Shown here: positions 5,272 to 31,478 of the stretch, one piece after another
Layout: each line of letters begins with the position of its first letter
Numbering within the stretch: the first letter of the stretch is position 1
NCBI GenBank assembly: GCA_023245435.1
Contig: JAHFKH010000002.1
Coordinates: forward strand, 1-45,725
Direction: 5' to 3'
Source of the DNA: Candidatus Shapirobacteria bacterium
GTDB lineage: Bacteria > Patescibacteriota > Microgenomatia > UBA12405
Length of the DNA stretch: 45,725 nucleotides
Notes under the pieces: generated by a model
Databases searched by the model: none
Seen by the model: only the letters and a program-made list of their open reading frames with translations
What the model was told of the DNA's origin: nothing
Translations under genes and position numbers: made by a program

Positions 5272-5707
5272 TATGTTCTTTAGTTAATGTTTCTAAAAGA
5301 TTGGCATATATTCTAGTAAGATCCTTGAGGTCTTTTGTTGGAATTTTAGAGAAAATCATTTGTATTTTTTCCATGAGTTTCTTTCTAAGAGTAACAAATT
5401 CCCTCTCGCCGCTTTCAGTGATAATTAGCCTGATAATACGTCTGTCTTCTTGATCATTAATTCTTTCTATAAGTCCTACCTTTACAAGTCTTTCTATAAG
5501 TTGTGTCGCTGAAGATTTTGAAAGTTTCAAAAAGTTAGCCAAACCACTAACAGTTCCACGTGGCTCTTCTTTTAAAAATTGGAGTGCCGTAAGTTGGAGC
5601 ATAGTTGCTTTTTTCTCTTCATGATCTTCCTGTGTCTGTTGAGACATAAGTTTTCCAAACTGCATCATGGTGCTAAATAATTGTTCGAAATCGGCGTCGT
5701 TTTTCAT
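5264..5707 (-). CDS. MarR family transcriptional regulator
   Basis: Winged-HTH signature LTALQFLKEEPRGTVSGLANFLKLSKSSATQLIERLVKVGLIERINDQEDRRII. Heads the efflux operon. Confidence 0.85.
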   Translation of the reverse strand: MKNDADFEQLFSTMMQFGKLMSQQTQEDHEEKKATMLQLTALQFLKEEPRGTVSGLANFLKLSKSSATQLIERLVKVGLIERINDQEDRRIIRLIITESGEREFVTLRKKLMEKIQMIFSKIPTKDLKDLTRIYANLLETLTKEHNE

Positions 5708-5730
5708 AGTTATTAGGTTTAACAGTTAAA

Positions 5731-5749
5731 TAGTTTACCACATAAACTA
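5731..5749. promoter_or_regulatory. inverted repeat TAGTTTA-N5-TAAACTA, candidate MarR operator
   Basis: Perfect 7-bp arms lie 24-42 nt upstream of the MarR start codon at 5707. MarR dimers typically bind such palindromes. Confidence 0.45.
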
Positions 5750-5792
5750 TATATTGCAACAATTTAATCTGTGGTAGAGTTTTTGACCATAC

Positions 5793-5888
5793 TTTGATCG
5801 TCAGCTTATTTGTTGTGTGTGTAAACTTTGTCTTGATTGCTGACACTATTTGGATTCTGTCTTCAGCAGATCCAGTTTTTAAAACGTA
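5793..5888 (-). pseudogene. relic of the 3' end of a large serine recombinase gene
   Basis: It translates to YVLKTGSAEDRIQIVSAIKTKFTHTTNKLTIK. This matches 23 of 32 residues at the C-terminus of the intact recombinase at 19431-20756 (HVLKAGSAEDRIQIMSAIKTKFILHNKQLTIK). No catalytic, recombinase or zinc-ribbon domain is present. Confidence 0.8.
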
Positions 5889-19430: not shown

Positions 19431-20756
19431 TTAAGTTTTAATTGTCAGTTGCTTGTTGTGCAGTATAAATTTTGTCTTTATTGCCGACATTATTTGAATT
19501 CTGTCCTCAGCTGAGCCAGCTTTTAGAACATGGAGTAAGTATTCTTTTGCCGTATCTCGATCTAGAGGTATTTTTTGAGGGTAATCAAATTGGTTTAGAT
19601 TTCCAGCTAAAAATTCTTGATGAAGCACCTCGCCTCTCAGTGAATGGAATCTTTCGATTTCGTCTTTTAGTTGATTTGTTAACAATTTTTCGTCAAGTTT
19701 TATCTCATCAATATGAGCGAGTAGTTGTTGGATTAATTCCTCTTCGTTGATGTACGGCTCTTCGCAGTCATAATCAACATGCCGACCACAGTGATAATAA
19801 ACATATTTTTTAAATCTTCCGTATTTATATCTCTTATATTTTTCTTCGGCCGTTATCCACCCTCCACAACCTCCACATTTACATAATCCTCTAAACGGAA
19901 ATAGTTTTTTATTCCACTCTTTAAGGGGAACATATAATTGTTTTTGGGCTTTATCAAAGATTTCTCTTGTTATTAATGGTTCATGATTTCCTTTATAGAT
20001 AATTCCTCCGAACTCAAACTCACCGTAGTAATAGGTATTTTTGAGTAATTTATAAACCTTACTTAACGCCAGTGGTTTTCCACTTCTAGTAGTAAATCCA
20101 ATCTTATCCAACCACATTTTCACCACCCTTCCACTTTGTCCCTTTTCAGCTACTCGATTAAATATTTGTTTAATAATTGAGGCACGTTCTTTATCAACTT
20201 CTACGTAGCTGATTCGGTTATAACTCATAACGTTTAGATACCCAAGTGGAGCTATGTTAGGCCTCCATCCTGCCTCACACTTAGCTTTCATACCTCTTTT
20301 GACGTTGATGCCTCTATTATCGTTTTCCAGCTTGGCTTGGGAGCATAAGATCATCAGTAAAAATTTCTCATTTGGATTATTTGAAAATGTTTGAGAAAAA
20401 GTGCGAATTGTTTGTAATTTTCCCTGATCCATTAAATCTACTAGTGTTCCCAAATCTCCGGCATTTCTGCTCAATCTGTCGGGTGCCCAGGTTAATATAG
20501 CATCAAATTCTCCAGATCTGATATCAATTAATAGTTGGTTAAAGACTGGTCGAAGTCCTGATGACTTGGCTGAGTGACTTTCCTGCCGAATTTCCTTAAT
20601 AAATAGGTTCTCTCTTTCAGCCAATGTTTTCATTTCATTGATTTGGGATTCGATCGACATGGCTTGTCGTTCGTCTGATTCCGATGATTTTCTAGCGTAT
20701 AGGCAATACCTAGTTTGCTTTATTTCCTGTATCTTTCCATCTTCTTTCTTCTTCAT
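19431..20756 (-). CDS. large serine recombinase (integrase)
   Basis: Resolvase catalytic domain YCLYARKSSESDERQAMSIESQ and DRLSRN. Recombinase domain. Zinc-ribbon CKCGGCGG...YYHCGRH. C-terminal coiled coil. Confidence 0.92.
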   Translation of the reverse strand: MKKKEDGKIQEIKQTRYCLYARKSSESDERQAMSIESQINEMKTLAERENLFIKEIRQESHSAKSSGLRPVFNQLLIDIRSGEFDAILTWAPDRLSRNAGDLGTLVDLMDQGKLQTIRTFSQTFSNNPNEKFLLMILCSQAKLENDNRGINVKRGMKAKCEAGWRPNIAPLGYLNVMSYNRISYVEVDKERASIIKQIFNRVAEKGQSGRVVKMWLDKIGFTTRSGKPLALSKVYKLLKNTYYYGEFEFGGIIYKGNHEPLITREIFDKAQKQLYVPLKEWNKKLFPFRGLCKCGGCGGWITAEEKYKRYKYGRFKKYVYYHCGRHVDYDCEEPYINEEELIQQLLAHIDEIKLDEKLLTNQLKDEIERFHSLRGEVLHQEFLAGNLNQFDYPQKIPLDRDTAKEYLLHVLKAGSAEDRIQIMSAIKTKFILHNKQLTIKT

Positions 20757-20812
20757 GACACTACTGTACCGCAGGTTTTGTGGAAGTCTAGGAGATAAAT
20801 GTATGTTTTAAA

Positions 20813-21700
20813 CTACAAATCAAGCGTCTCGGGCATTATGGAAGCGCAAGTTAACCCAAACGTCACTGATACTTTTTTTGCTTCTTCTGGAGTTAGTTCC
20901 TTCCAAATTTTTTCTTTTTCGTAAGCGACAATTTCCTCAGTTGTAATTTCTCTTGTTTGAAAACTGGTTTCTTTAACGTTGTAAATGCCTTTAGCATTAA
21001 TTATTTCAATATTACCGATAAAGTGTCTTTCCACGACATCGTAATAGAATTGGAGAGTGTCCACGGTTAAAGTCTCACCCTCAAGGGTCAAAATCTGTTT
21101 TTGATTTTGATTTGGTGGGGTATAGATATAACTGCCTGGTTTCCTGGTCAACTGGTTTTCGTTCCACAAGCGAGCAAAAACTTCATATGCGGTTGCAGTT
21201 TTGCCATTATCGACGACTAATTTGATAACTTTAGGATCTGTCGAAACGGTTCCTTTAAAAGCTGAACTGGTAGAAACACTTAAACTCATTCCTTTAATCA
21301 TTGTGTCTGAAATCATAGAAGAGGCGTAAAGCTTTGTTTTTATGTCCTTATCCTCAGTATCAACTAATGCCAATAAATCAATTCCCAACTCAGAGGCCAT
21401 ATTTACAGCAGTACTCGTATAAGGTGAATTAGAAACAATGGATCCCTTTTTGGCGCCAATATCTTGAAGTTTAGTATTAAATGCTTCGATGACGGGTATA
21501 TCAACAGGTCTTTTATAATCCTTACATTCAAAAGCAATAAAATCATAATTTGATGGATCAACTAGTTTTACATCAACCTGTCGTCTACCTTTAGAAAGTT
21601 TTCCCCGCAAAAAGACGTTTTTGTAAACTTCTGATTCGGGGTTGAAACCCTTGATCATCTCACGGGTTTTATCTTCAAATTTTTTCCATTTTTTTATCAT
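20813..21700 (-). CDS. Mrr-cat type restriction endonuclease-like domain protein with ~170-aa C-terminal domain of unknown function
   Basis: PD-(D/E)xK layout RRQVDVKLV...DFIAFECKDYKRPVDIPVIEAF...AKKGSIVSNSPYTSTAVNMASELGIDLLAL matches the Mrr_cat pattern. I recognise no family for the C-terminal half. Confidence 0.65.
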   Translation of the reverse strand: MIKKWKKFEDKTREMIKGFNPESEVYKNVFLRGKLSKGRRQVDVKLVDPSNYDFIAFECKDYKRPVDIPVIEAFNTKLQDIGAKKGSIVSNSPYTSTAVNMASELGIDLLALVDTEDKDIKTKLYASSMISDTMIKGMSLSVSTSSAFKGTVSTDPKVIKLVVDNGKTATAYEVFARLWNENQLTRKPGSYIYTPPNQNQKQILTLEGETLTVDTLQFYYDVVERHFIGNIEIINAKGIYNVKETSFQTREITTEEIVAYEKEKIWKELTPEEAKKVSVTFGLTCASIMPETLDL

Positions 21701-21751
21701 ATTTCAAATATTTATCAACCGACATGATTATAATCTTATCCCAGGTATATA

Positions 21752-22258
21752 ATGTTAAAATTTGCAATGAAGAGAATTTTAGTTTTGTTATTTTTAGTCG
21801 GAATCATCACGGTTGGAGTTGCTTATTTCAAATCTAATAAAATTCCCGCTGATGATTTCAAAGCCCCAGGTAAAAGTTGGAATTCGCCTAAAAAAGTCGA
21901 AGATTATTTCGTTGAAAAACTGAGATTTACTCAAAGTGATTTAGAAAGACAAAAACAAAGCGAAACGGTCGATTTTCGGCCCGGCAAAGGCTCTACGCTA
22001 GAGGCAATTGTAAGTAACCTTCAATATTATGGATTCATTCGGAGTGAAAAAGCCTTAATGTATGCTTTAGAAAATACCAAAGATACTACTCAAGGAAACC
22101 CGGGAGCACTCTCTGTTGGCAGGAATGGGTCGATTGATACTGTAGCCAGTTACCGGGTTTCGGAAAATATGACTACCTGGGAAATGGCTGATACTTTACT
22201 TAACAAATCACACTATTTTGGTCCGAATGATGAGTACAACTATATGTTTATGCCCTAA
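21752..22258 (+). CDS. membrane-anchored hypothetical protein (weak YceG/MltG N-domain-like segment)
   Basis: N-terminal TM helix ILVLLFLVGIITVGVAYF. The segment GKGSTLEAIVSNLQYYGFIRSEKAL resembles the MltG N-terminal lobe, but the similarity is weak. Confidence 0.55.
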   Translation: MLKFAMKRILVLLFLVGIITVGVAYFKSNKIPADDFKAPGKSWNSPKKVEDYFVEKLRFTQSDLERQKQSETVDFRPGKGSTLEAIVSNLQYYGFIRSEKALMYALENTKDTTQGNPGALSVGRNGSIDTVASYRVSENMTTWEMADTLLNKSHYFGPNDEYNYMFMP

Positions 22259-22263
22259 ACTTC

Positions 22264-22289
22264 AAACCCTCCGATTTCTCAGAGGGTTT
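22264..22289. terminator. bidirectional stem-loop AAACCCTC-N10-GAGGGTTT
   Basis: Perfect 8-bp stem between two convergent genes (ends at 22258 and 22309), flanked by A/T runs. Confidence 0.6.
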
Positions 22290-22308
22290 AATTGAATTCT
22301 CTTTTTAA

Positions 22309-22851
22309 TTATTTTATTAGAGATATTTGTTTCTCGGTTCCAAATAATCCACCTTTGACCAATAGTTTTAAGTCGGTGGCATCATCGGGTAAGTCGAAGA
22401 CTATGTCGCCAGTTACTGATAGTCCAGGCTGTACCTGTTGCAAGAACATGTCTATCTTGCCTTGAGATAATCCTTTGGCTGTTTGACCTTCGATTGATCT
22501 ATCAAACTTTCTACCTTGGGAATCAGTAATTTTTATCATTGAGCTGTCAATTGTGACCGTCTCCTTGCCAACATTCTTGACATTTAGTGTCACCACATAG
22601 AAAGTACCTTGGGCATCCTTTTTGGTATAAGAGCTACCCAATGATTTTGCAGTAGTAACGCCTGTCGCAGTAAATGCCAGATCCTTATCGGTTACTGTGT
22701 CGTTAAGTTTGGCTACGGCATCTTCTTTTTTGGCTCCATTTTGAGTAGTACCACTATTGTTGGTGTTTGAACCCTTACCACCCCCTGAAATTGCACCAAT
22801 TATCATAATAATTACAAAGGCGATTACGCCCCATTTGAGTATTTTTTTCAT
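22309..22851 (-). CDS. DUF4352-like membrane-anchored / secreted beta-sandwich protein
   Basis: ATG at 22851 gives MKKILKWGVIAFVIIMIIGAI (TM anchor), a low-complexity linker, then FYVVTLNVKNVGKETVTIDSS...GDIVFDLP, which is typical of DUF4352. The 41-codon upstream extension in the track is not credible. Confidence 0.7.
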   Translation of the reverse strand: MKKILKWGVIAFVIIMIIGAISGGGKGSNTNNSGTTQNGAKKEDAVAKLNDTVTDKDLAFTATGVTTAKSLGSSYTKKDAQGTFYVVTLNVKNVGKETVTIDSSMIKITDSQGRKFDRSIEGQTAKGLSQGKIDMFLQQVQPGLSVTGDIVFDLPDDATDLKLLVKGGLFGTEKQISLIK

Positions 22852-22907
22852 ATTTTTTGAATAAATATTTCTAACTAATAATTCACGTATATGATGACAC
22901 ATTTTAT

Positions 22908-23186
22908 TTGTTAAGTCTATGTTTACTGCGTGGCAGTATTCTAATACTTGAATATGATGAATCTGTGTTATCAAAAGATGCTTTTACCAAAAAACTAGCT
23001 GAAAAAATCAAGAAAGCCAGAGAAGAATCAGGTATATCTCAGGAAGAACTGGCACACCAAGCGGGACTTTACCGAACTTACATCGGCCATTTGGAAAATG
23101 CCAAATATTCACCAACGGCATATGTAATTTATAAAATCAGCAAAGTCCTGAACATTAAGGCTGACGATTTACTTCCGGGTAATTAA
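22908..23186 (+). CDS. XRE-family HTH transcriptional regulator
   Basis: HTH core ISQEELAHQAGLYRTYIGHLENAKYSPTAYVIYKISKVL. The track start at 22908 is TTG. An in-frame GTG at 22965 would give a more typical 73-aa protein. Its 3' end overlaps the TerL 3' end by 4 nt (convergent). Confidence 0.8.
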   Translation: MLSLCLLRGSILILEYDESVLSKDAFTKKLAEKIKKAREESGISQEELAHQAGLYRTYIGHLENAKYSPTAYVIYKISKVLNIKADDLLPGN

Positions 23187-24691
23187 AATCTTGTATTCAT
23201 CGAAATAGACTCTAGCCTATCAAGGCCGTAGTTTCTGTCGTACAAACTACTTCCACAGCTGATAATCATTATTCCGGGTACGGGTTTATTGTCGATTTCC
23301 AAAATCTTTAGTATTAATAAGGAAAAGGCGTCAGCAAGATCATCATGTTTTTCGATTCCAAATCCGACTAGCTGACTTATTAACTCCTCGGCTCCTTTTC
23401 GAGGAAATAAAATTTTACCCTGTTCAATTAAATGAGTCACTAACGCCAATCTAGAACGCTTGTCCTGTCCATTAACCTTAACGCCCTCACAATGAATATT
23501 TCGGTCTCCTAAATGCTGGATTATTGATTGTTGGTATCCAACGTCTTCGATAAATATTTTTGATTCCTTTCCTAAAATTGACGATAGTTCTTCAATTTTT
23601 GAAACCGTTTGAGGAAAAGTCAGTCTTTGATTGACTGGATTTGGATAAATATATATTTCTAGGTTTTCTTTACCACCATATACTTTGGCAGTAACCATAG
23701 TTGTATAATCTGCTGAATCTTTTTGAGAAATTGCCAAATCAATGCCAGTTCCAATTAGTTTGAAATCCTTTTTATCTCTCTCGATTTCATTGTAGAATTT
23801 TATCCATTCAGGGTGAACTAACCTATCAGCATCAGAAATTATTTTTAGCAAATATTCTCGATACCATGAAGATTCAGACCCAATGCTAGATCTCAACTTA
23901 TTAATTGCTTCCATGTTTGGGAACTTTCCTGGCCACGCGATCGTTTCATGTTTATCGACTAGTGGAACAGATAGAAATTTACCGCTAAGTTTTTTATTAT
24001 CTATCATCGCTTTGAGTCGCATGAGTAAACAATCCTCATGGAGTAAGTTTCCGACGATAATATATTTTGTAAAATTATCACCGACCGGGAACACCTCACC
24101 AGTCAGCCATTGAGAAGTTTTGTCTCGACTCTCCCTAGTTTTAGTATTGTTTAAGTCCTCTACATCGTCGCAGATCACTAAATCTGGTCGATATTGACCG
24201 TGTCTTAAACCACGAATACTCTGTTCCGTTGAGGCAACCGCTATTCGGGCATCGAAGTTAGATAAAACAATAGAGGTCGACCCCCATTCGTCATTAACTT
24301 CCTGAAACGGCCCGATATCCTTTTTAAGTAATTCGTTAGTTTCCAACTCTCTCTTAATATTAGTGAGATGAAGCCTGGCCTGTTGTTGAGTTTGACCTAC
24401 AATTAGTACAAACTTCTTCTGTTGACTTCCAGTAATTGCCCAGATTGGATATGACAAACTCATGATTGTTGATTTACTTGACCCCCTAAAGGCAATGACA
24501 ATTCCCAACTTCAAATTTGTGTCTTCGGTCAGGGAAAACATTTCATTATGAAACGGAGCAAATGGATAGCCGATGTAGTGGCTAAAATAAATAGTAAAAA
24601 ACCAGAAGTGGCTGTTTCTGGCCAACGCCTTGCGGACACTTCTTTTCTTTTTTATCTCGACGAGTTCACTTTCATTTAATGTTTGGATCAT
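23183..24691 (-). CDS. phage terminase large subunit
   Basis: Walker A-like AFRGSSKST and Walker B LVICDDVED. C-terminal RNaseH-like nuclease motifs TGIDLAIS and EKHDDLADAF. ATG at 24691 is preceded by GAAGGAGGG. Confidence 0.85.
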   Translation of the reverse strand: MIQTLNESELVEIKKKRSVRKALARNSHFWFFTIYFSHYIGYPFAPFHNEMFSLTEDTNLKLGIVIAFRGSSKSTIMSLSYPIWAITGSQQKKFVLIVGQTQQQARLHLTNIKRELETNELLKKDIGPFQEVNDEWGSTSIVLSNFDARIAVASTEQSIRGLRHGQYRPDLVICDDVEDLNNTKTRESRDKTSQWLTGEVFPVGDNFTKYIIVGNLLHEDCLLMRLKAMIDNKKLSGKFLSVPLVDKHETIAWPGKFPNMEAINKLRSSIGSESSWYREYLLKIISDADRLVHPEWIKFYNEIERDKKDFKLIGTGIDLAISQKDSADYTTMVTAKVYGGKENLEIYIYPNPVNQRLTFPQTVSKIEELSSILGKESKIFIEDVGYQQSIIQHLGDRNIHCEGVKVNGQDKRSRLALVTHLIEQGKILFPRKGAEELISQLVGFGIEKHDDLADAFSLLILKILEIDNKPVPGIMIISCGSSLYDRNYGLDRLESISMNTRF

Positions 24692-25103
24692 TTTTCCCTC
24701 CTTCAATTGAATTTTCTAATGTGTTTGGTAAGACCGAGGCCAATTTCAGTGCCTTCATTACTAGTGCTTCCTGCTCTGGCGACAATTGCTCATCGTCGTG
24801 TTTTAATTTGGCAGTTACTTCTACTCTCGTGGCATATGATGGATGATGGTTACGTAACCAAAAAATAATGGCAGTCAAATTCTTATCTCTAATTGCACTC
24901 ATAAGTTGAGATTCAGCCATATCATTAACCAAACCATTACCATCAGAAATTGCCTCGTTAACTGCGGCCGCAAACTTTTCATCATCGCTTTTCCAACGAT
25001 AAAAACTGGCTCGACCAATGCCGACTTTTTCACAGGCAACTTGAACCACAGGTGTCTTTTTTAGTTGTTCAATTAACAGTTGTTTTTCATTTTTTGTTTT
25101 CAT
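24672..25103 (-). CDS. terminase small subunit-like HTH protein
   Basis: N-terminal HTH VVQVACEKVGIGRASFYRWKSDDEKF. It lies immediately upstream of TerL and overlaps it. The function call rests mainly on position. Confidence 0.55.
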   Translation of the reverse strand: MKTKNEKQLLIEQLKKTPVVQVACEKVGIGRASFYRWKSDDEKFAAAVNEAISDGNGLVNDMAESQLMSAIRDKNLTAIIFWLRNHHPSYATRVEVTAKLKHDDEQLSPEQEALVMKALKLASVLPNTLENSIEGGKNDPNIK

Positions 25104-25830
25104 ACTTTTTCAGTTTGTTAAATCGATCAATAATTGTTTGGCAGTACTCAGGATCAATTTCCACCATCAAGCATTTTCGTTTTGTTTGCTCACAGGCGAT
25201 AAGAGTAGATCCTGAACCACCAAAAGGGTCGTAAACATAATCACCAATCTGAGTACTATTGAGAATCAAATGTCGCAGAAGTGATATTGGTTTCATGGTT
25301 GGATGTAGTGGGCTTTTGTTGGGTTTGGGAAAAGCCAAAATACTTTTATCCTTACTCTTAAAGAATTGGTGGGTGCCAAACCAGCCATAAGCGATCAACT
25401 CGTGTTGGGGTAGATAATCCATCCGACCAATGACTGAGTGGTTTTTTATCCAGATTAAAAGTTGGCAAAATTTGAAACCGGAAATATCAAGTGCCTTTTT
25501 AAGCGCAAACAACATTTTGTCAGAATTAAAAATGTAGTAACTATTTTTAGCGGATAAATATGGCTTCATAATCTCCAACCATTGTTGAGTAAATAATTGA
25601 TATGATTCATCCGTTTGAACCTGATCGTTGGCGATTACTTTTCTCTTAACTTGTGATTTCGAGAACCCATTTTTACTTTCCACGTACGCTACACCATAAG
25701 GGACATCTGCCAATATAAGTCGAACACTTTTACTTGAAAGTAACTTTTCAACCATTACCTTATCGGTTGAGTCGCCACATAAAAGCAGGTGGTCGCCAAG
25801 GGTAACTATGTCGCCGTTTTTAATTAACAT
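25087..25830 (-). CDS. DNA methyltransferase (N6_N4_Mtase family, beta class)
   Basis: Motif IV variant DVPYG comes early and motif I DPFGGSGSTLIACE comes late. Strong SD AGGAGGTGA before the ATG at 25830. Confidence 0.85.
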   Translation of the reverse strand: MLIKNGDIVTLGDHLLLCGDSTDKVMVEKLLSSKSVRLILADVPYGVAYVESKNGFSKSQVKRKVIANDQVQTDESYQLFTQQWLEIMKPYLSAKNSYYIFNSDKMLFALKKALDISGFKFCQLLIWIKNHSVIGRMDYLPQHELIAYGWFGTHQFFKSKDKSILAFPKPNKSPLHPTMKPISLLRHLILNSTQIGDYVYDPFGGSGSTLIACEQTKRKCLMVEIDPEYCQTIIDRFNKLKKYENKK

Positions 25831-27097
25831 ACTTCACCTCCTTGCCAGTTAATTTTTGATAGCGGGAAATAATTAAATCGCAAAATATCGGTTCGTGTTC
25901 AATCATCAAGCACCTTCGTTTTAATTGCTCGCAGGCGATTAATGTTGAACCTGATCCACCGAATAAATCTAAAACAGCGTCCCCAACACTAGTACAACGC
26001 CTTAGCGCTTTTTCATGAAGGATGGGGCTCTTTTCTGTCGGATGTTCATATTCTCCACCCGATAATCTTTTCACCAGCCAAATGTTTAACAAATCCAAAA
26101 TGTCGTCAATAGTTCGATTGCCTGAGCCAATTTCTTTATTGAGAATCTCATTTAAGTTTTTCGGGTTTTCAGAAATTGTAGGCTTGCCGATAGTTCCATA
26201 AATACAAGCCTCATACGATTTATTAAAAGCAATATTTGGAGTAGGAGAAAAGCCATTTTTAATCCACAAGCAAGTCCGCTTGTTTTCAATTCCTAGTTCT
26301 GTAAATAGTCCTTGAACTAGGCCAATGTGGTTTTCATCATTCCAATAAAATACATGACAATCTGGTTTGGAAATAGTTAACGCATTTTGAATTGTCTTTT
26401 TCAAAAATTCTCTGTACTCAGAGTCAGTTTTGTTGTCATCGGTCTTACCTCCATATTTACTTTTACCTCCGACTCCTTTGTTGTAGTCGAGAGAAATATT
26501 GTAGGGCGGGTCACAGTAGATCATCGATATTGTCTTTTCTCTAGTTAGCTTTTGAACAATCCCAAGGCTTGTACTATCACCGCAAATTAATAGATGAGAA
26601 CCAAGTTGAACAATATCTCCAACTTTTGTTTTAGGGATCTTAATTTTCTCCAACTCTTTTTCGGTATTGAAGTTATCGTCCTCAATATCGAGATTTTCGT
26701 CCCAAATTCTAGACAAATCATTGTTATCAAAACCAATGTCCATCAACATTTCGATATCAAAATTCTTGAGTAGATCAAAATCCCAATCACCAGATACCTT
26801 ATTTAAAGTTAGATTAAGTTTTTTCTCTCTTTCGATATTATCTATGTCAATAAAATTTACTGGCACAGTTTTATACCCCAATTCTTTGGCTATTTTTAGC
26901 CTAAAATGCCCAGCAATCACCACTCCATATCTTGACTTATTTCCATTAGCCAAAATTGGCACCACAAAACCATTTTCCTTGATACTTTTCTTCAAATCAG
27001 AGATAGCTTTCTCGCTCCAGTATCGGGGATTATACTCGGATGGAATTAGGTCATTAATATTTACCTCAACTGTTTGAATCTCTGTTTTATTTTTCAT
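25820..27097 (-). CDS. ParB-like nuclease domain fused to DNA methyltransferase
   Basis: N-terminal ParBc-like LIPSEYNPRYW...VVIAGHFRLKIAKELG. MTase motif IV CDPPYN and motif I DLFGGSGSTLIACE. Overlaps the next MTase gene by 11 nt. Confidence 0.85.
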   Translation of the reverse strand: MKNKTEIQTVEVNINDLIPSEYNPRYWSEKAISDLKKSIKENGFVVPILANGNKSRYGVVIAGHFRLKIAKELGYKTVPVNFIDIDNIEREKKLNLTLNKVSGDWDFDLLKNFDIEMLMDIGFDNNDLSRIWDENLDIEDDNFNTEKELEKIKIPKTKVGDIVQLGSHLLICGDSTSLGIVQKLTREKTISMIYCDPPYNISLDYNKGVGGKSKYGGKTDDNKTDSEYREFLKKTIQNALTISKPDCHVFYWNDENHIGLVQGLFTELGIENKRTCLWIKNGFSPTPNIAFNKSYEACIYGTIGKPTISENPKNLNEILNKEIGSGNRTIDDILDLLNIWLVKRLSGGEYEHPTEKSPILHEKALRRCTSVGDAVLDLFGGSGSTLIACEQLKRRCLMIEHEPIFCDLIISRYQKLTGKEVKYVN

Positions 27098-27205: not shown

Positions 27206-27952
27206 TTAAGCTTGAAGGCTACCTAATCTTTTTTTGTGTCGTTTAACTGATTCACTGGCTTCTTTATATGTGTAATCTTCCAAACCAAACTCATTAGTGA
27301 TTATGTCGGAAATTTCAGCCATTTTATGTCCTAAATTTTTGAGTTCGAAAGCTCTTTTATCGATATCTAGCTTTGGGGCAGGTTGAAACTTTTTAGATTT
27401 GTCCGGTAATCTTTTCTGTTCAGCCATTACCATCGGCCACATAAACTTTATATCCTCCAAAGTAGTATCTGCATTTATCTCCAACATTAACGCACCGCGT
27501 TCCCCAACTCCGGAGACTATCGACACATTTCCCGGAATCATCATTGATTCAATGTTGTTAAATATCAAGTATCTTTTAACTGATTCCAGCCAATTTATTG
27601 GCAATCGATATTTTGAGACTAGATTTTTAAGGTCTCGATGAAAATCATTAATTGGGACTCTGTTATTAAATTCTTTGTTAGCCTTTTCCTTACCTAACCA
27701 ATCTTTTAACTTGATTAACATATTTTCTACTTCCGCCTCAGCCTTCCTGTTGCCATCTATAAATTCGTCCGATGCTTCACAAATCCAATTGTGCCATTTT
27801 TGATTTTCTACATCGGATACAAAACCACATTCAGAAATTTTCCACTTTTTTCGTAGTGATTTGATTTCTTCTTGAAATTTTGGATCGGAAATTAGTATTT
27901 TGGCCTTTTGGTGTAGGCGGTTTCGAGTTTTAGTAATGTGACTGTCTTTCAT
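27206..27952 (-). CDS. hypothetical protein, possible C-terminal HTH
   Basis: 248-aa ORF with an ATG start. First gene of the MTase-terminase transcription unit. The C-terminal LGHKMAEISDIITNEFG...SVKRHKKRLG looks HTH-like. I recognise no family. Confidence 0.6.
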   Translation of the reverse strand: MKDSHITKTRNRLHQKAKILISDPKFQEEIKSLRKKWKISECGFVSDVENQKWHNWICEASDEFIDGNRKAEAEVENMLIKLKDWLGKEKANKEFNNRVPINDFHRDLKNLVSKYRLPINWLESVKRYLIFNNIESMMIPGNVSIVSGVGERGALMLEINADTTLEDIKFMWPMVMAEQKRLPDKSKKFQPAPKLDIDKRAFELKNLGHKMAEISDIITNEFGLEDYTYKEASESVKRHKKRLGSLQA

Positions 27953-28144: not shown

Positions 28145-28546
28145 ATGTCGTACTTGCGAATATCTCAAGCTGCAAAAATACTTAAAGTAAATACTCGGAC
28201 CCTTATGCGATGGGATAATGAAGGTAAATTTGTCGCCCACAAAGAACCACTGTCAAAAATACGGTTTTATGACGAAGTTGACATACTAAACCACGAGATC
28301 TGGTTCGAACTTAGGAGAAAACACAAAGCACATCTTAAGAAGCTCGACTCAATAAGAAAAGAAGTGGATAAGTTTGTTGTAACTCAGCCATTAGAATTCG
28401 GCGCTAACCCAAAGTTTCATAAACTCGAGGATATGAAAAAGGCATATGACGCACTAAGAGATTGGGAAAAAGAAGAAAGAAATATCACGAGCGAGTATGG
28501 TAAATTACCGAGTGGTTTTAAAGCAAAAGTTGACCCTGAAACTTAG
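28145..28546 (+). CDS. MerR/excisionase-type HTH protein (candidate recombination directionality factor or regulator)
   Basis: N-terminal YLRISQAAKILKVNTRTLMRWDNEGKF is a MerR/HTH_17-type helix-turn-helix. The C-terminus is charged and helical. Confidence 0.75.
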   Translation: MSYLRISQAAKILKVNTRTLMRWDNEGKFVAHKEPLSKIRFYDEVDILNHEIWFELRRKHKAHLKKLDSIRKEVDKFVVTQPLEFGANPKFHKLEDMKKAYDALRDWEKEERNITSEYGKLPSGFKAKVDPET

Positions 28547-28563: not shown

Positions 28564-29793
28564 CTAGCTTTCTAAACTCTTTTTTTGATTTTTAATCCTC
28601 TCAAGTAGCTCATCATAAAGAACAATTTCGATATTTTTGAACTGGTTTTTTAATATCCTAAAGTCTTCTTTTTTCGAAGAGTTGTCTAATTGGGCTGAAT
28701 TTCCCATAATTACGAATGCCCTTGGGCGTATGACATCTAAATCAATGTCTTTCTCACGTTTAACATCAGCCTTTAAGTCATTTCCTTTTCGCTCTGAGTG
28801 ATAAAGATATTTTTCAGCTTGGACAATAGCTTCTATCGCTTGTTTGTCCCACGAGTAATTTCCTCTACTATCCTTTTTGGCGATTAATAGCTTAGTTTCT
28901 GGCTTTTTGATTTCGAAAAGATCAAGATACCCCTGGGTGTCCACCAAACCAAAATCAACTTTTCTGGTTGTTCCAAGAATTACATTAAGCTGTGCGATTG
29001 AATGAATGTATTTCGAATCTATCAAAAATAGATTCTCTTCTAAAAACTTTCCCCATTCAGATTCTGACGTCTTTTTTGATGACAGTTTTTTGTCAAATCT
29101 ATCGATTACATCACTAAATGTCACCGAGTCAATTTTTAGTTTTGTATTTTTAAATAGGTCGCTTTGGGTAATTTGTAATCGATGGCTCGATTTCATTAGG
29201 GTTGAGACAATGTCCGTTACCCTACCGATATCGTGTTTATCAAAACTATCTACTCCTTGGGCAGACAGTGTCTGAATTGCAAGCTTCGTGTCAGCCGCGG
29301 CGCTATTAATCTTTTTAGCTTTCACCACTTTTGGAAATTGTGTATTAAATAACTTGTTAACAATCTGGGCTCGTCTTTGGCGATGGTAGTAGTCCATTGT
29401 ACCGAGTTCATCGGATAAACCCTCCAGACAGGAATATGTTAGGTGTAAATATTTGTTCTTTCCTTTCTTCGTAATAGAACACGCTCCGGTTTTGGAGATG
29501 TCAATTGATTTTATGTTTTTACTGTTAAAGGTTCGATGAATATAGTCAAATATACGGTTCTTACAATATCCGTTTTTCTTAAATATTTCGGGTAAAGACG
29601 AGAATCCATCAATGGTAAGTTTAGAGAAAAAGTAGTATGCAGACTTAATTGGGTAGTACTCAGTAAAGAGCTTGTTTTTATTGATTTTATAAACAAGTAT
29701 TCTTTCTGGAGATTTCTTATCATCAATAACATATCCCGATATAATTTCGCTTCCTCTAATCTTCTTGACCTCTTCTATTGTTTTTAATGCCAT
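28564..29793 (-). CDS. Shedu-like defence nuclease (DUF4263-type PD-(D/E)xK C-terminal domain)
   Basis: The C-terminal ~170 aa read EWGKFLEENLFLI...RKVDFGLVDTQGYLDLFEIKKPETKLL...AIVQAEKYL...RAFVIMGNS...FRILKNQFKNIEIVLYDELLERI. This matches my recollection of the DUF4263/SduA pattern (D...E-x-K, Q..kY, ivIiG, nieI.tYdeLl). The N-terminal ~230 aa are unassigned. Confidence 0.65.
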   Translation of the reverse strand: MALKTIEEVKKIRGSEIISGYVIDDKKSPERILVYKINKNKLFTEYYPIKSAYYFFSKLTIDGFSSLPEIFKKNGYCKNRIFDYIHRTFNSKNIKSIDISKTGACSITKKGKNKYLHLTYSCLEGLSDELGTMDYYHRQRRAQIVNKLFNTQFPKVVKAKKINSAAADTKLAIQTLSAQGVDSFDKHDIGRVTDIVSTLMKSSHRLQITQSDLFKNTKLKIDSVTFSDVIDRFDKKLSSKKTSESEWGKFLEENLFLIDSKYIHSIAQLNVILGTTRKVDFGLVDTQGYLDLFEIKKPETKLLIAKKDSRGNYSWDKQAIEAIVQAEKYLYHSERKGNDLKADVKREKDIDLDVIRPRAFVIMGNSAQLDNSSKKEDFRILKNQFKNIEIVLYDELLERIKNQKKSLES

Positions 29794-29798
29794 ATATT

Positions 29799-30683
29799 TT
29801 ACTTTTGATTAATAAAGGTATTAAAATCCATAGTTTTCTCCTGTTTATTAACAAACCAAAAGTGATCTTCAGTTATCCCAAAAATGTAACAAAATTCAGC
29901 CCATATTTTGTAAGCAATCATCTCGGGAGTTTGGTTTTCTTTCTTTATAAAGACATCTCTGTCGACCGCGGGGCCCAAAAAGTCTAATCGACCAGCAGAC
30001 GAAATCCAGTTTATATCTAGAACTAGTTCAATTATCTTTCTCTCAGGTTTAAATATGTGGATTTTATAAATTATTCCAGACGGTTTTTTAGCTAGGTGTT
30101 CCGATATTTTATTTGTAAAGTTGACAAAGTTGGATATAAGTTCAGCCGCTGCTAAACCATTAAATTTAAAGGATTCGTTTGGATCTTCGTTTTCAATGCC
30201 GTGTCCATAAAAATCCTCACTAGCGGCGAAGATAATTTGACCATCTCTAAATATCCTAATAATTTTTCTGTCTCCATTGGTGATTTGCAAATACTCACCA
30301 GCAACTGGTTTTGTGCGTCCGAGTGTCCTCAAGTCCCACCCCATGTTTCTAAAACTAACTGGATTCTCGATGTACTTAGTTAATTCCGATTCACCCCCGG
30401 CAAATAAATCCTTAACTTCATTCGGTTGAGATCTAAATGAGCTGGATATGGCAAAAGTAGTGAAGTTTCTGAAATCGGAAAAATTCTTAATGTCGTTTAC
30501 CCTATTTATTTCTTCGGGAGTGAATGTTTGGTGAACTTCATTGGCATTTTTTTCTAAAAGATAGGTCCTTACTGCTTCTCTGATCAACTCACTTCTATTC
30601 CTAATCTCAACTTCGGCTTGCTTATCAACTGCATCTAACAACTCTTCAGATAAAGTGATGTTTATTATTTGGTTTTTCCTCAT
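29799..30683 (-). CDS. ribbon-helix-helix (CopG/Arc/MetJ) domain protein fused to ~245-aa domain of unknown function
   Basis: ATG at 30683 gives MRKNQIINITLSEELLDAVDKQAEVEIRNRSELIREAVRTYLLEK, a clear RHH. I recognise no family for the rest. Its stop is 5 nt before the Shedu-like start. Confidence 0.75.
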   Translation of the reverse strand: MRKNQIINITLSEELLDAVDKQAEVEIRNRSELIREAVRTYLLEKNANEVHQTFTPEEINRVNDIKNFSDFRNFTTFAISSSFRSQPNEVKDLFAGGESELTKYIENPVSFRNMGWDLRTLGRTKPVAGEYLQITNGDRKIIRIFRDGQIIFAASEDFYGHGIENEDPNESFKFNGLAAAELISNFVNFTNKISEHLAKKPSGIIYKIHIFKPERKIIELVLDINWISSAGRLDFLGPAVDRDVFIKKENQTPEMIAYKIWAEFCYIFGITEDHFWFVNKQEKTMDFNTFINQK

Positions 30684-30689
30684 GAACTT

Positions 30690-30718
30690 ATTGTACACAC
30701 ATGTATGTGTAATTTCAA
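30690..30718 (-). promoter_or_regulatory. promoter TTGAAA-N17-TACAAT with embedded palindrome ACACAT-GT-ATGTGT (30697-30710)
   Basis: On the minus strand the sequence reads TTGAAATTACACATACATGTGTGTACAAT, then AAGTTC, then ATG. The -10 ends 6 nt before the start codon, which is leaderless geometry. A 6-2-6 palindrome fills the spacer and is a plausible RHH autoregulatory operator. Confidence 0.5.
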
Positions 30719-30736: not shown

Positions 30737-30804
30737 TGAGACACTCCTTTTTTATACTGTCTCATTTGTCTCATTTAGCTTCAAATCTTTGATAGAATGA
30801 GACA
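30737..30804. repeat. array of four 7-bp boxes TGAGACA / TGTCTCA
   Basis: TGAGACA at 30737-30743 and 30798-30804. TGTCTCA at 30758-30764 and 30767-30773. Boxes 2 and 4 extend to a perfect 11-bp inverted repeat, ACTGTCTCATT / AATGAGACAGT. Confidence 0.8.
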
Positions 30805-30899
30805 GTGGGTAAGTGGGTGTTATAGGGACAGAAAGGTTCCAGACCCACATGCTCCGCCTACGTTCGCTGAAGCTCACTCCGGCGGACACAGTCCGCTAA
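30805..30899. other. GC-rich non-coding patch with several mutually exclusive stems (unknown structured element)
   Basis: Hand count gives 54 G+C in 95 nt (about 57 percent) against AT-rich flanks. Tandem AGTGGGT at 30804-30810 and 30812-30818. Stems GTGGGT (30813-18)/ACCCAC (30843-48), TCCGCC (30853-58)/GGCGGA (30881-86) and GCGGAC (30882-87)/GTCCGC (30891-96). Confidence 0.5.
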
Positions 30900-31478
30900 T
30901 CAAAACTTTTCTGTCAATATTTTTTCGACTAACTCTCTCGTATACAATTGGTGAATATTTTGATTTTCCCAATCGATTGCGTGTCGATATTCATCATTAG
31001 AATATGCTGTTAAATTTAATTTATTGGCAATATCGTGGACATCATTATTTTCTTTGCCTTCAATTTCAAAAGTAAAATAATCGGGGGTATATTTTGATAA
31101 TTTTATTTCGACTCCCAAATAATTAAATTCCCAACTTTCCCAAAAATATATCATACCCGTATTAAATCGCATACATTCGAGCATATCTAGAGCAGATAAA
31201 AACTCCCCTGTTTTTAATTTAACCTCAACTTCTTTTCTCTCTAAATCCTGAAAGTTGCCAGTTTTGATTGAAATTTTTTCTTTATCATCACTTTTTTTAA
31301 GTCTGATATCGGTACCACTACTGTTTTTCCAGGTTTTAGTTTCTGAATCAAAACCAGGGGAAATATCAATCGATAATCGGTGATAATGATCGACCAATTC
31401 TCCTGTTTCTGATAACAATTTAAATAAATTATCAAATTTTTCTTTACTAATTTTCCCCCTGATTTCTATTTCGGTCAT
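30900..31478 (-). CDS. CYTH-domain protein (triphosphate tunnel metalloenzyme / CyaB-like)
   Basis: N-terminal EIEIRGK, then alternating charged beta-strand motifs DIRLKK, EVEVKL and FEIEG, as in the CYTH fold. Confidence 0.65.
   Translation of the reverse strand: MTEIEIRGKISKEKFDNLFKLLSETGELVDHYHRLSIDISPGFDSETKTWKNSSGTDIRLKKSDDKEKISIKTGNFQDLERKEVEVKLKTGEFLSALDMLECMRFNTGMIYFWESWEFNYLGVEIKLSKYTPDYFTFEIEGKENNDVHDIANKLNLTAYSNDEYRHAIDWENQNIHQLYTRELVEKILTEKF

Follow-up and report, generated by a model that had tools for sequence, protein, structure and literature searches.

Shedu (SduA, DUF4263/PF14082) is a nuclease-based defence system, and a survey of 5,499 Shedu gene neighbourhoods linked it to restriction-modification, bacteriophage exclusion (BREX), transposons and prophages, with no partner of the kind described here reported (10.1101/2023.08.10.552793). 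In EcSduA the residues D269, E283, K285 and Q314 are needed for defence and cleavage, and their mutation abolishes both (10.1101/2023.08.10.552762). An earlier note on the DNA analysed here took Shedu to be a single-gene system, a description that is now out of date because a two-component form, KELShedu, has been published (Sci Adv 2025, PMC12577705). In KELShedu, KELA, a 110-amino acid (aa) WYL-like SH3 β-barrel protein that binds double-stranded DNA, is encoded 3 bp upstream of the DUF4263 nuclease KELB in one operon; the two proteins form a complex and both are needed (PMC12577705). The locus considered here lies in a 45,725-nucleotide (nt) stretch of a Candidatus Shapirobacteria contig (JAHFKH010000002.1; this whole stretch is called the window), where a Shedu gene is directly preceded by the gene for a protein, RHH-X, which joins an N-terminal ribbon-helix-helix (RHH) to a large C-terminal domain, X.

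The CapW/BrxR regulators (winged helix-turn-helix–WYL–WCX) are described in the KELShedu paper as lying at the 5′ edge of varied defence operons, with a palindrome in the promoter and a proposed derepression on infection (PMC12577705). Bacterial Schlafen nucleases (pSlfn) were shown by Perez Taboada et al. (Nat Microbiol 2026, PMC13056530) to be antiviral effectors with diverse fused phage-sensor domains, for which the sensor role was proposed and, in one case, shown; 1.5% of the pSlfn fusions carry ‘TBP-like’ domains, named as putative sensors, a class that was untested experimentally in that study. A literature search for Shedu with ribbon-helix-helix found no paper, and none of the papers returned for Candidate Phyla Radiation (CPR)/Patescibacteria combined with Shedu and defence-system terms mentions Shedu.

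Judged from sequence, RHH-X is a CPR-specific module that precedes defence effectors which can be exchanged for one another, most often Shedu, and is not a Shedu-specific partner. The next gene was extracted at every RHH-X locus with enough sequence. In about 24 of about 26 loci, all from CPR/Patescibacteria, it lies on the same strand as RHH-X at a distance of −4 to +133 nt (Table 1). Shedu is directly downstream in at least 14 loci and a convergent neighbour in two more (L088, L169), which makes it the partner in ~16 of ~26, and these Shedu proteins show at least five N-terminal architectures (409, ~391, ~420, ~325 and 250 aa). The two-component Shedu variant proposed in the earlier note therefore stands in so far as a conserved upstream RHH-X partner exists, but the same family also precedes at least five non-Shedu families. 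That the partner is dedicated to Shedu does not hold: the modules swap independently, and full-length Shedu relatives without X occur in Empedobacter and in other phyla. The two genes are conserved as neighbours in other genomes, though promiscuously.

The swapping is seen when individual loci are compared. A Candidatus Shapirobacteria UBA2283 contig (L007) carries the same two genes with ~98% protein identity. The RHH-X proteins of the window and L086 are 94% identical and yet have different partners (Shedu versus Ymh), and the Shedu proteins of the window and L087 are 91% identical while their RHH-X proteins share only 63.5%; a test for co-evolution of the antitoxin–toxin type failed on these same two comparisons. 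DNA similarity between the window and L086 extends from 30769, inside the upstream element termed box A, to 29799, which is exactly the RHH-X stop codon. An all-against-all BLAST of the different effectors at 1e-5, a sequence-level comparison, found no docking segment common to them. On the strength of these alignments, RHH-X and effector genes recombine independently; swapped partners and a breakpoint at the stop codon argue against a co-adapted protein interface, and would be the natural outcome were the promoter the target of the upstream module.

The second gene of the window is, by its profile matches, a bona fide member of the Shedu family in which all testable defining features are present. 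The assignment of its C-terminus to DUF4263/SduA in the earlier note is borne out by PF14082 (SduA_C), which matches residues 242–397 with an E-value of 1.1e-27 and 97.6 bits (cut-off 27), by 19 SduA models of PADLOC (best 4e-35) and by Shedu entries of the PDB (8ps4, 3e-15; 8ti8, 4e-11). The four residues D269, E283, K285 and Q314 of EcSduA align to D280, E294, K296 and Q325, the first three of which are invariant, and the last nearly so, when 13 related Shedu proteins are aligned. The variable N-terminal region (residues 1–240) has no Pfam match. Full-length relatives with 35–45% identity over at least 94% of the length, some of them named Shedu, are found in Bacteroidota, Thalassospira, Heliobacterium, Chloroflexota and Empedobacter; the Empedobacter relative is encoded alone, in a Kiwa/HNH defence island, and no X partner was found at the loci of two further homologues (L171, 57% identity; L172, 43%). 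Since the Shedu subtype of the window occurs without X elsewhere, X appears to be an add-on layer, and the locus is best explained as a two-gene defence cassette whose second gene is a complete, normally autonomous Shedu. At another locus (L170, 2610–3491, + strand) a 293-aa protein with HTH_17 and ~230 aa without a family match is encoded 9 nt before a 59%-identical Shedu; that it is a fusion of a helix-turn-helix (HTH) with X was ruled out (hhalign probability 0.4%), and it may be an independent ‘DNA-binding domain plus unknown domain’ partner in the same position.

The open reading frame (ORF) of RHH-X (29799–30698, − strand) encodes 299 aa from a GTG and 294 aa from an ATG at 30683. The ATG is the likely start, because homologues begin with MRKNQ and the GTG falls inside the −10 region of the promoter. 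Between the TAA stop (29799–29801) and the Shedu ATG (29793) lie 5 nt, AATAT, the spacing that had been given before. The earlier note also recognised an RHH in the first ~45 aa and no familiar family in the remaining ~245, and both observations agree with the searches: Pfam RHH_1 (PF01402) matches residues 7–42 with an E-value of 5.9e-10 and 39.2 bits (cut-off 20.5), and residues ~50–294 matched no entry of Pfam, NCBIfam, PADLOC, PHROGs or the PDB sequences. A motif N8…R28-N29-R30-S31 is nearly invariant across the family. Weak, sub-threshold matches to NikR, MazE, VapB and HicB-like models are all confined to the RHH, PHROG matches to the N-terminal region are annotated as transcriptional repressors, and a Pfam scan found no WYL, HTH or AlbA_2 match. 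The ~50 full-length homologues (42–98% identity) all come from CPR/Patescibacteria-type metagenome-assembled genomes or from metagenomes. An AlphaFold2 model of the full-length protein has a predicted local distance difference test score (pLDDT) of 84 and a predicted template modelling score (pTM) of 0.78.

Modelled on its own, X reaches a pLDDT of 90.8 and a pTM of 0.90, and both the full-length and the domain model show two α+β repeats. The best PDB neighbours found by Foldseek are AdoMetDC and TATA-binding protein (TBP), with E-values of 3.7e-3 to 1e-2 and template modelling scores of at most 0.3; no significant relative was found in the PDB with either model, or in BFVD with the full-length model, and the X profile has no match among PDB sequences, so that the label ‘TBP-like’ for the modelled fold is tentative. 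A word-indexed protein search suggested a tiny family of ~64 clusters; an exhaustive HMMER search corrected this to hundreds, with 231 clusters at 50% identity and E≤1e-30. Most of these fall into two groups, standalone X of ~235 aa and proteins of ~455–495 aa with N-terminal SLFN_AlbA_2 and C-terminal X, whereas RHH-X accounts for only four representatives and HTH_17–X for a few (P0188, P0195, L111). A search of 2.9 million viral contigs turned up no X-domain gene.

The larger of these proteins connect X to the Schlafen nucleases. The X of the window is 33% identical to that of the Schlafen–X fusion P0193 over 218 aa (BLASTP E 6e-39) and matches P0200 at 3e-22; the invariant motif set P-x3-R-x2-GW…T…G…K…E…F is present, and the similarity spans the whole ~230-aa domain, which makes X, on this alignment evidence, homologous to the C-terminal domain of the Schlafen–X fusions. 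The Schlafen catalytic motif Ex4(E/D)xK lies near residue 25 in 50 of 51 sequences checked, namely 48 X-containing proteins of at least 400 aa and three AlbA_2 proteins encoded beside standalone X. Standalone X itself directly follows a Schlafen gene at every visible context (L113, L115, L166, L168, L167). X is always C-terminal to, or encoded just after, an output module: most phyla have a Schlafen RNase there, and the CPR an RHH or HTH_17. We infer that the ‘TBP-like’ class of pSlfn fusions (PMC13056530) corresponds to the X family. Two of these contexts are of separate note. At L115 (765–6153, + strand), and also at L116 and L119, genes for a 574-aa protein, a Schlafen (234 aa, ENDFFDCK), X (250 aa) and a ResIII/DEAD helicase (751 aa) occur together, overlapping one another in the L115 operon, and may constitute a multi-gene Schlafen–X–helicase system. 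At L167 (1–5720, + strand) a split Schlafen-like gene (231 aa) and X (239 aa) come directly after, and overlap the end of, a type II cyclic oligonucleotide-based antiphage signalling system (CBASS) operon with Patatin, CD-NTase, Cap2 E1/E2 and Cap3 JAB.

Upstream of RHH-X, a promoter-like site and, in its spacer, a 6-2-6 palindrome lie where the earlier note had put them, and the TGAGACA boxes that it mentions are present further upstream. The ATG of the window is 6 nt past the −10 box, and about 30 RHH-X loci share TTGACA or TTGAAA, a 17-nt spacer, TACAAT or TACACT and an ATG 5–8 nt later, a spacing from which a leaderless mRNA is predicted. In an AT-rich region such as this one, promoter-like sites are hardly exceptional (16, against 10.4 expected), and the promoter call rests mainly on this conservation. 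In these loci an inverted repeat is placed within or close to the spacer and has a clade-specific sequence: TACACAcaTGTGTA in clade A, TTGTAT-N6-ATACAA in clade B and ATCAACAA-N13–15-TTGTTGAT in clade C. Its left arm begins at −17 to −31 in 22 of 30 loci, and the clade-A motif occurs once per locus, solely at the RHH-X promoter; a second copy was searched for at the convergent Shedu operons (L088, L169) and none was found.

Between 30745 and 30860 lies an element which consists, in order, of box B, a TGTCTCA heptad, box A with TATAAAAAAGG and, in some loci, another TGTCTCA. In the window, direct copies of TGAGACA are at 30773–30767 and 30764–30758, and inverted TGTCTCA copies at 30804–30798 and 30743–30737. 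Box A is unique in the window and, across 1.36 Mb of fetched loci, found solely upstream of clade-A RHH-X genes; the element is shared by the window, L007, L087, L001, L008, L013, L088, L104, L112 and L009, and precedes clade-A RHH-X genes irrespective of effector type. Box B is in tandem duplicate at L008, and at L112 a second copy is seen by eye in the alignment only. L088 has a compensatory AAGACA/TGTCTT version of the last heptad pair, and at L009 an insertion of ~270 nt separates the element from the RHH-X gene. The boxes could be a second operator of the heptad type, for which the RHH omega repressor offers a precedent, or a boundary of the cassette. A structured non-coding RNA was rejected for 30745–30860 (RNAalifold −1.65 kcal/mol with essentially no covariation; nothing in Rfam at E≤10), as was a short ORF within box B, whose ATG (~30850) is not conserved in L007 or L087. 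An exact 19-mer of box A occurs in four viral contigs, with surroundings so unconserved that these were set aside as chance matches.

The reading that we favour, at about even confidence, is that RHH-X is an infection-responsive autorepressor which gates transcription of whichever effector lies downstream. RHH-X would dimerise through its RHH and bind the inverted repeat inside its own promoter, and this binding would keep the bicistronic RHH-X/Shedu message low. X would be the signal-receiving part, the same domain being joined to Schlafen tRNase effectors in other phyla; an infection cue sensed by X would relieve DNA binding, and the effector would be made. X would in each case control its N-terminal partner, here a DNA-binding domain acting on its own promoter, and that RHH, HTH_17 or Schlafen are interchangeable N-terminal to X fits such an ‘output domain–X’ logic. 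If control bears on the promoter rather than on the effector itself, genes for any effector could sit behind RHH-X, which is the situation in CPR genomes, and the model would account for effector promiscuity, for breakpoints at the gene boundary and for Shedu working alone elsewhere.

Several points weigh against autorepression. The inverted-repeat score per locus has a mean of 6.9 against 5.1 ± 1.4 for shuffled sequence, a modest excess only, and because the repeats are singly weak the case for an operator rests on their consistency in position and within clades. At L088 and L169 Shedu is convergent, so the RHH-X promoter cannot drive it, and the position of standalone X directly after a Schlafen gene implies that X can act through protein–protein contact. 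KELA, too, looked like a repressor by its fold and yet did not repress KELB (PMC12577705). Shedu, moreover, has its own N-terminal gating domain, and the need for a further gate at the level of transcription is not evident. An extension of the autorepressor reading, which we put forward only tentatively, is that X is a portable infection sensor with two outputs, namely a fused or adjacent Schlafen tRNase across most phyla and, in the CPR, a promoter module built on an RHH or HTH_17; the CPR module, boxes A and B included, would then be a plug-and-play inducible promoter whose effectors are exchanged at the gene boundary.

RHH-X could instead be a neutraliser in the style of a type II antitoxin, repressing the operon and directly inhibiting a toxic effector that its loss or degradation on infection would set free, with X as a ‘hyperpromiscuous’ neutralising domain. 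Promiscuous antitoxin domains exist (Panacea/DUF4065), the gene order is the classic one, with the RHH gene first, the next one overlapping it or close behind (−4 to +9 nt at many loci) and a palindromic promoter site, and the partners (PD-(D/E)xK nuclease, HEPN, TIR) are all typical toxic effectors. The matches to HicB-like, VapB and MazE antitoxin models, however, all fall below curated cut-offs and concern the RHH only, and X is modelled as a large, rigid, conserved globule (pLDDT 91), whereas RHH antitoxins wrap their toxins with disordered tails. Nor is a specific inhibitory interface likely when near-identical X domains accompany unrelated effectors that lack a detectable common segment. 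Outside the CPR, the nuclease to which X is fused in cis has retained its catalytic motif, which suits a sensor or regulator better than an inhibitor, and other bacteria tolerate the same Shedu subtype without X. We therefore consider an antitoxin role unlikely.

Rather unlikely as well is a role for RHH-X at the protein level, in which it would activate the effector or direct it to its target as a sensor or co-factor, with both proteins needed and the RHH serving only for autoregulation or dimerisation. The physical coupling of X to a nuclease in the Schlafen–X fusions and in the split Schlafen and X gene pairs speaks for it, as do the convergent RHH-X/Shedu loci (L088, L169), which stay associated without co-transcription, the predominance of Shedu among the partners, and KELShedu, where a small DNA-binding partner complexes with Shedu and does not repress (PMC12577705). 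A 94%-identical X would, however, have to activate structurally unrelated effectors in which BLAST at 1e-5 detects no common docking segment, the recombination breakpoints lie exactly at the gene boundary, and a Shedu of this subtype, with the same N-terminal domain, occurs alone in Empedobacter and other genomes. That the adjacency is incidental, with RHH-X a repressor or partition-type RHH protein of a neighbouring mobile element near which defence genes accumulate, is very improbable: the cassette of the window does abut a block with serine recombinase, terminase and methylase genes, the HTH_17–X gene of L111 lies near a similar recombinase/terminase block, some cassettes adjoin tRNA-Phe and boxes A and B could be element ends or recombination sites, but a 2.75-kb block with both genes recurs in L087 without the phage-like genes of the window, ~24 of 26 loci have a same-strand gene at most 133 nt downstream that is, where identifiable, a defence-type effector, and the viral contigs contain no X-domain gene.

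Table 1. Features of the RHH-X/Shedu locus in the window, and genes found downstream of RHH-X
Feature	Position (window) or loci	Strand	Remarks
RHH-X gene	29799..30683	−	294 aa; N-terminal RHH and C-terminal X domain
RHH DNA-binding domain	30558..30665	−	Residues 7–42; Pfam RHH_1 positions 2–37 of 39
X domain	29802..30500	−	Residues 62–294, 233 aa; tandem α+β, no curated family
Shedu nuclease gene	28564..29793	−	409 aa
SduA_C/DUF4263 PD-(D/E)xK nuclease domain	28603..29070	−	Residues 242–397; D280, E294, K296, Q325
Promoter-like site TTGAAA-N17-TACAAT	30690..30718	−	10/12 consensus positions
Operator-like palindrome ACACAT-AC-ATGTGT	30697..30710	−	Inside promoter spacer
Box A AAATGAGACAAATGAGACAGTATAAAAA	30749..30776	−	Two TGAGACA heptads 9 nt apart, then A-rich tract
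Box B GGTCTGGAACCTTTCTGTCCCTATAAC	30819..30845	−	Conserved upstream non-coding block
MerR/HTH_17 gene	28145..28546	+	133 aa, convergent with Shedu; MerR 1.5e-7, HTH_17 8e-6
Phage-like block	19431–27097	−	Also DUF4352 protein and HTH_Tnp_1_2 small-terminase-like protein
Large serine recombinase	19431–20756		441 aa
Terminase large subunit	23183–24706		507 aa
Two DNA methylases	25087–27097		N6_N4 methylase and ParB_N-fused N6_N4 methylase
Downstream gene: SduA_C Shedu	Window, L007, L087, L008, L009, L098, L010, L099, L105, L095/L096/L110, L089/L101 (truncated)		
Downstream gene: Hypoth_Ymh	L002/L090, L086		PADLOC Aga_HEPN / PD-Lambda-3_B
Downstream gene: TIR_2	L005/L012		
Downstream gene: DUF3800	L011, L097, L100		
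Downstream gene: 392-aa protein	L001		PDC-M34B and weak HEPN_Swt1 matches
Downstream gene: unknown 376–381-aa family	L092, L094, L108		

On its Shedu side the cassette is followed by the convergent MerR/HTH_17 gene, a 248-aa ORF, two DNA methylases, terminase genes and the serine recombinase, and on its RHH-X side by a 192-aa ORF without a family match and then a NUDIX gene; the two flanking ORFs (30900–31478, − strand, 192 aa; 27206–27952, − strand, 248 aa) have no match in Pfam or PHROGs. Given that the recombinase, the terminase and the two methylases adjoin the cassette, its placement at the edge of a mobile island in the earlier note is reasonable. The block from 30858 to 28102 (box B, box A, RHH-X, Shedu and MerR/HTH_17) is the 2.75-kb block which recurs in L087, followed there by ordinary ORFs in a different context, and its occurrence without the phage-like genes suggests that the cassette moves independently of them. 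The MerR/HTH_17 gene is separated from the Shedu gene by 17 nt and has a homologue in L087 (2420–2839, − strand) despite the different flanks; it could be an accessory or third component, or an excisionase-like gene. Four nt past the stop of the 192-aa gene is a perfect GC-rich hairpin without a T-run (GCGGAC-TGT-GTCCGC, 30882–30896, − strand), which may be the terminator of that gene or an insulator of the cassette. Rfam and ARAGORN report nothing in the window beyond tRNA-Arg(GCG) (8–80, − strand) and tRNA-Ser(GCT) (727–812, + strand), both at its left end.

Some of the other loci have neighbours of their own. Beside the HTH_17–X gene of L111 are three ORFs, one resolvase-like (427 aa), one of 507 aa and one HTH-like (149 aa), which look comparable to the block in the window. 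At L011 and L100 a tRNA-Phe (5768–5843 and 5672–5746, respectively) is found ~150–250 nt upstream of the RHH-X/DUF3800 cassettes, and a sequence like a tRNA 3′ end, GGTTCGAGTCTGATAGGAC, is repeated just before the promoter; together these suggest that integration took place at a tRNA. A DUF2779 (Cas4-like) gene comes after Shedu in L009 (7623–9083, + strand), where it overlaps Shedu by 4 nt, and in L169 (7306–8811, − strand), where its neighbours are an RVT_1 reverse transcriptase and small FtsK_gamma proteins; an FtsK_gamma gene also comes after the Ymh gene in L086.

The RHH-X/Shedu pair would, in sum, be a defence effector under a dedicated sensor-regulator, an arrangement more general than that first proposed. 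Few regulator families are known that silence abortive or toxic effectors until infection (CapW/BrxR, CapH/CapP), and a compact RHH-sensor module in control of six or more of the effector families would be one more. If X is such a portable infection sensor, the CPR, bacteria with very small genomes, would possess defence sensor-regulators of a new family together with a natural cassette for effector swapping. RHH-X would also offer a way to learn what signal is sensed by the uncharacterised ‘TBP-like’ domain of Schlafen nucleases. That recombination falls exactly at the gene boundary shows the modularity of defence in the CPR, whose immunity is barely studied. Annotators should be aware that a Shedu call in a CPR genome is part of a two-gene unit. 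The 14-bp palindrome, the 294-aa protein and the predicted leaderless promoter also make a small candidate operator/repressor pair.

Compared with the described systems, the nuclease of the window resembles Shedu in its SduA_C domain, its catalytic D/E/K/Q residues, its variable N-terminus and its neighbourhood of defence or mobile genes, and differs in being the second gene, behind RHH-X. It shares with KELShedu a DNA-binding partner encoded just upstream of a DUF4263 nuclease in a single operon; RHH-X, however, has 294 aa, combines an RHH with a tandem α+β domain and has no WYL match, features which set it apart from KELA as described, and it is common to at least five non-Shedu effector families. 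The pSlfn proteins are linked to RHH-X by the homology of X to the C-terminal domain of SLFN_AlbA_2 proteins, but the protein of the window has an RHH in the place of the Schlafen domain, and its nuclease is a separate gene. RHH antitoxins and NikR-like proteins likewise have an N-terminal RHH, an upstream position in a tight two-gene operon and a promoter palindrome; X is unrelated to the ACT-like domain of NikR, Foldseek matches to NikR covering the RHH only, and partner promiscuity argues against a toxin-specific antitoxin. With CapW/BrxR, RHH-X has in common a DNA-binding domain joined to a putative sensor domain, a range of at least six effector families and a positionally conserved inverted repeat in the promoter, while its DNA-binding domain is an RHH and not a winged HTH, X is not WYL, the family is restricted to the CPR and the mRNA is predicted to be leaderless; by analogy, RHH-X may work like CapW/BrxR.

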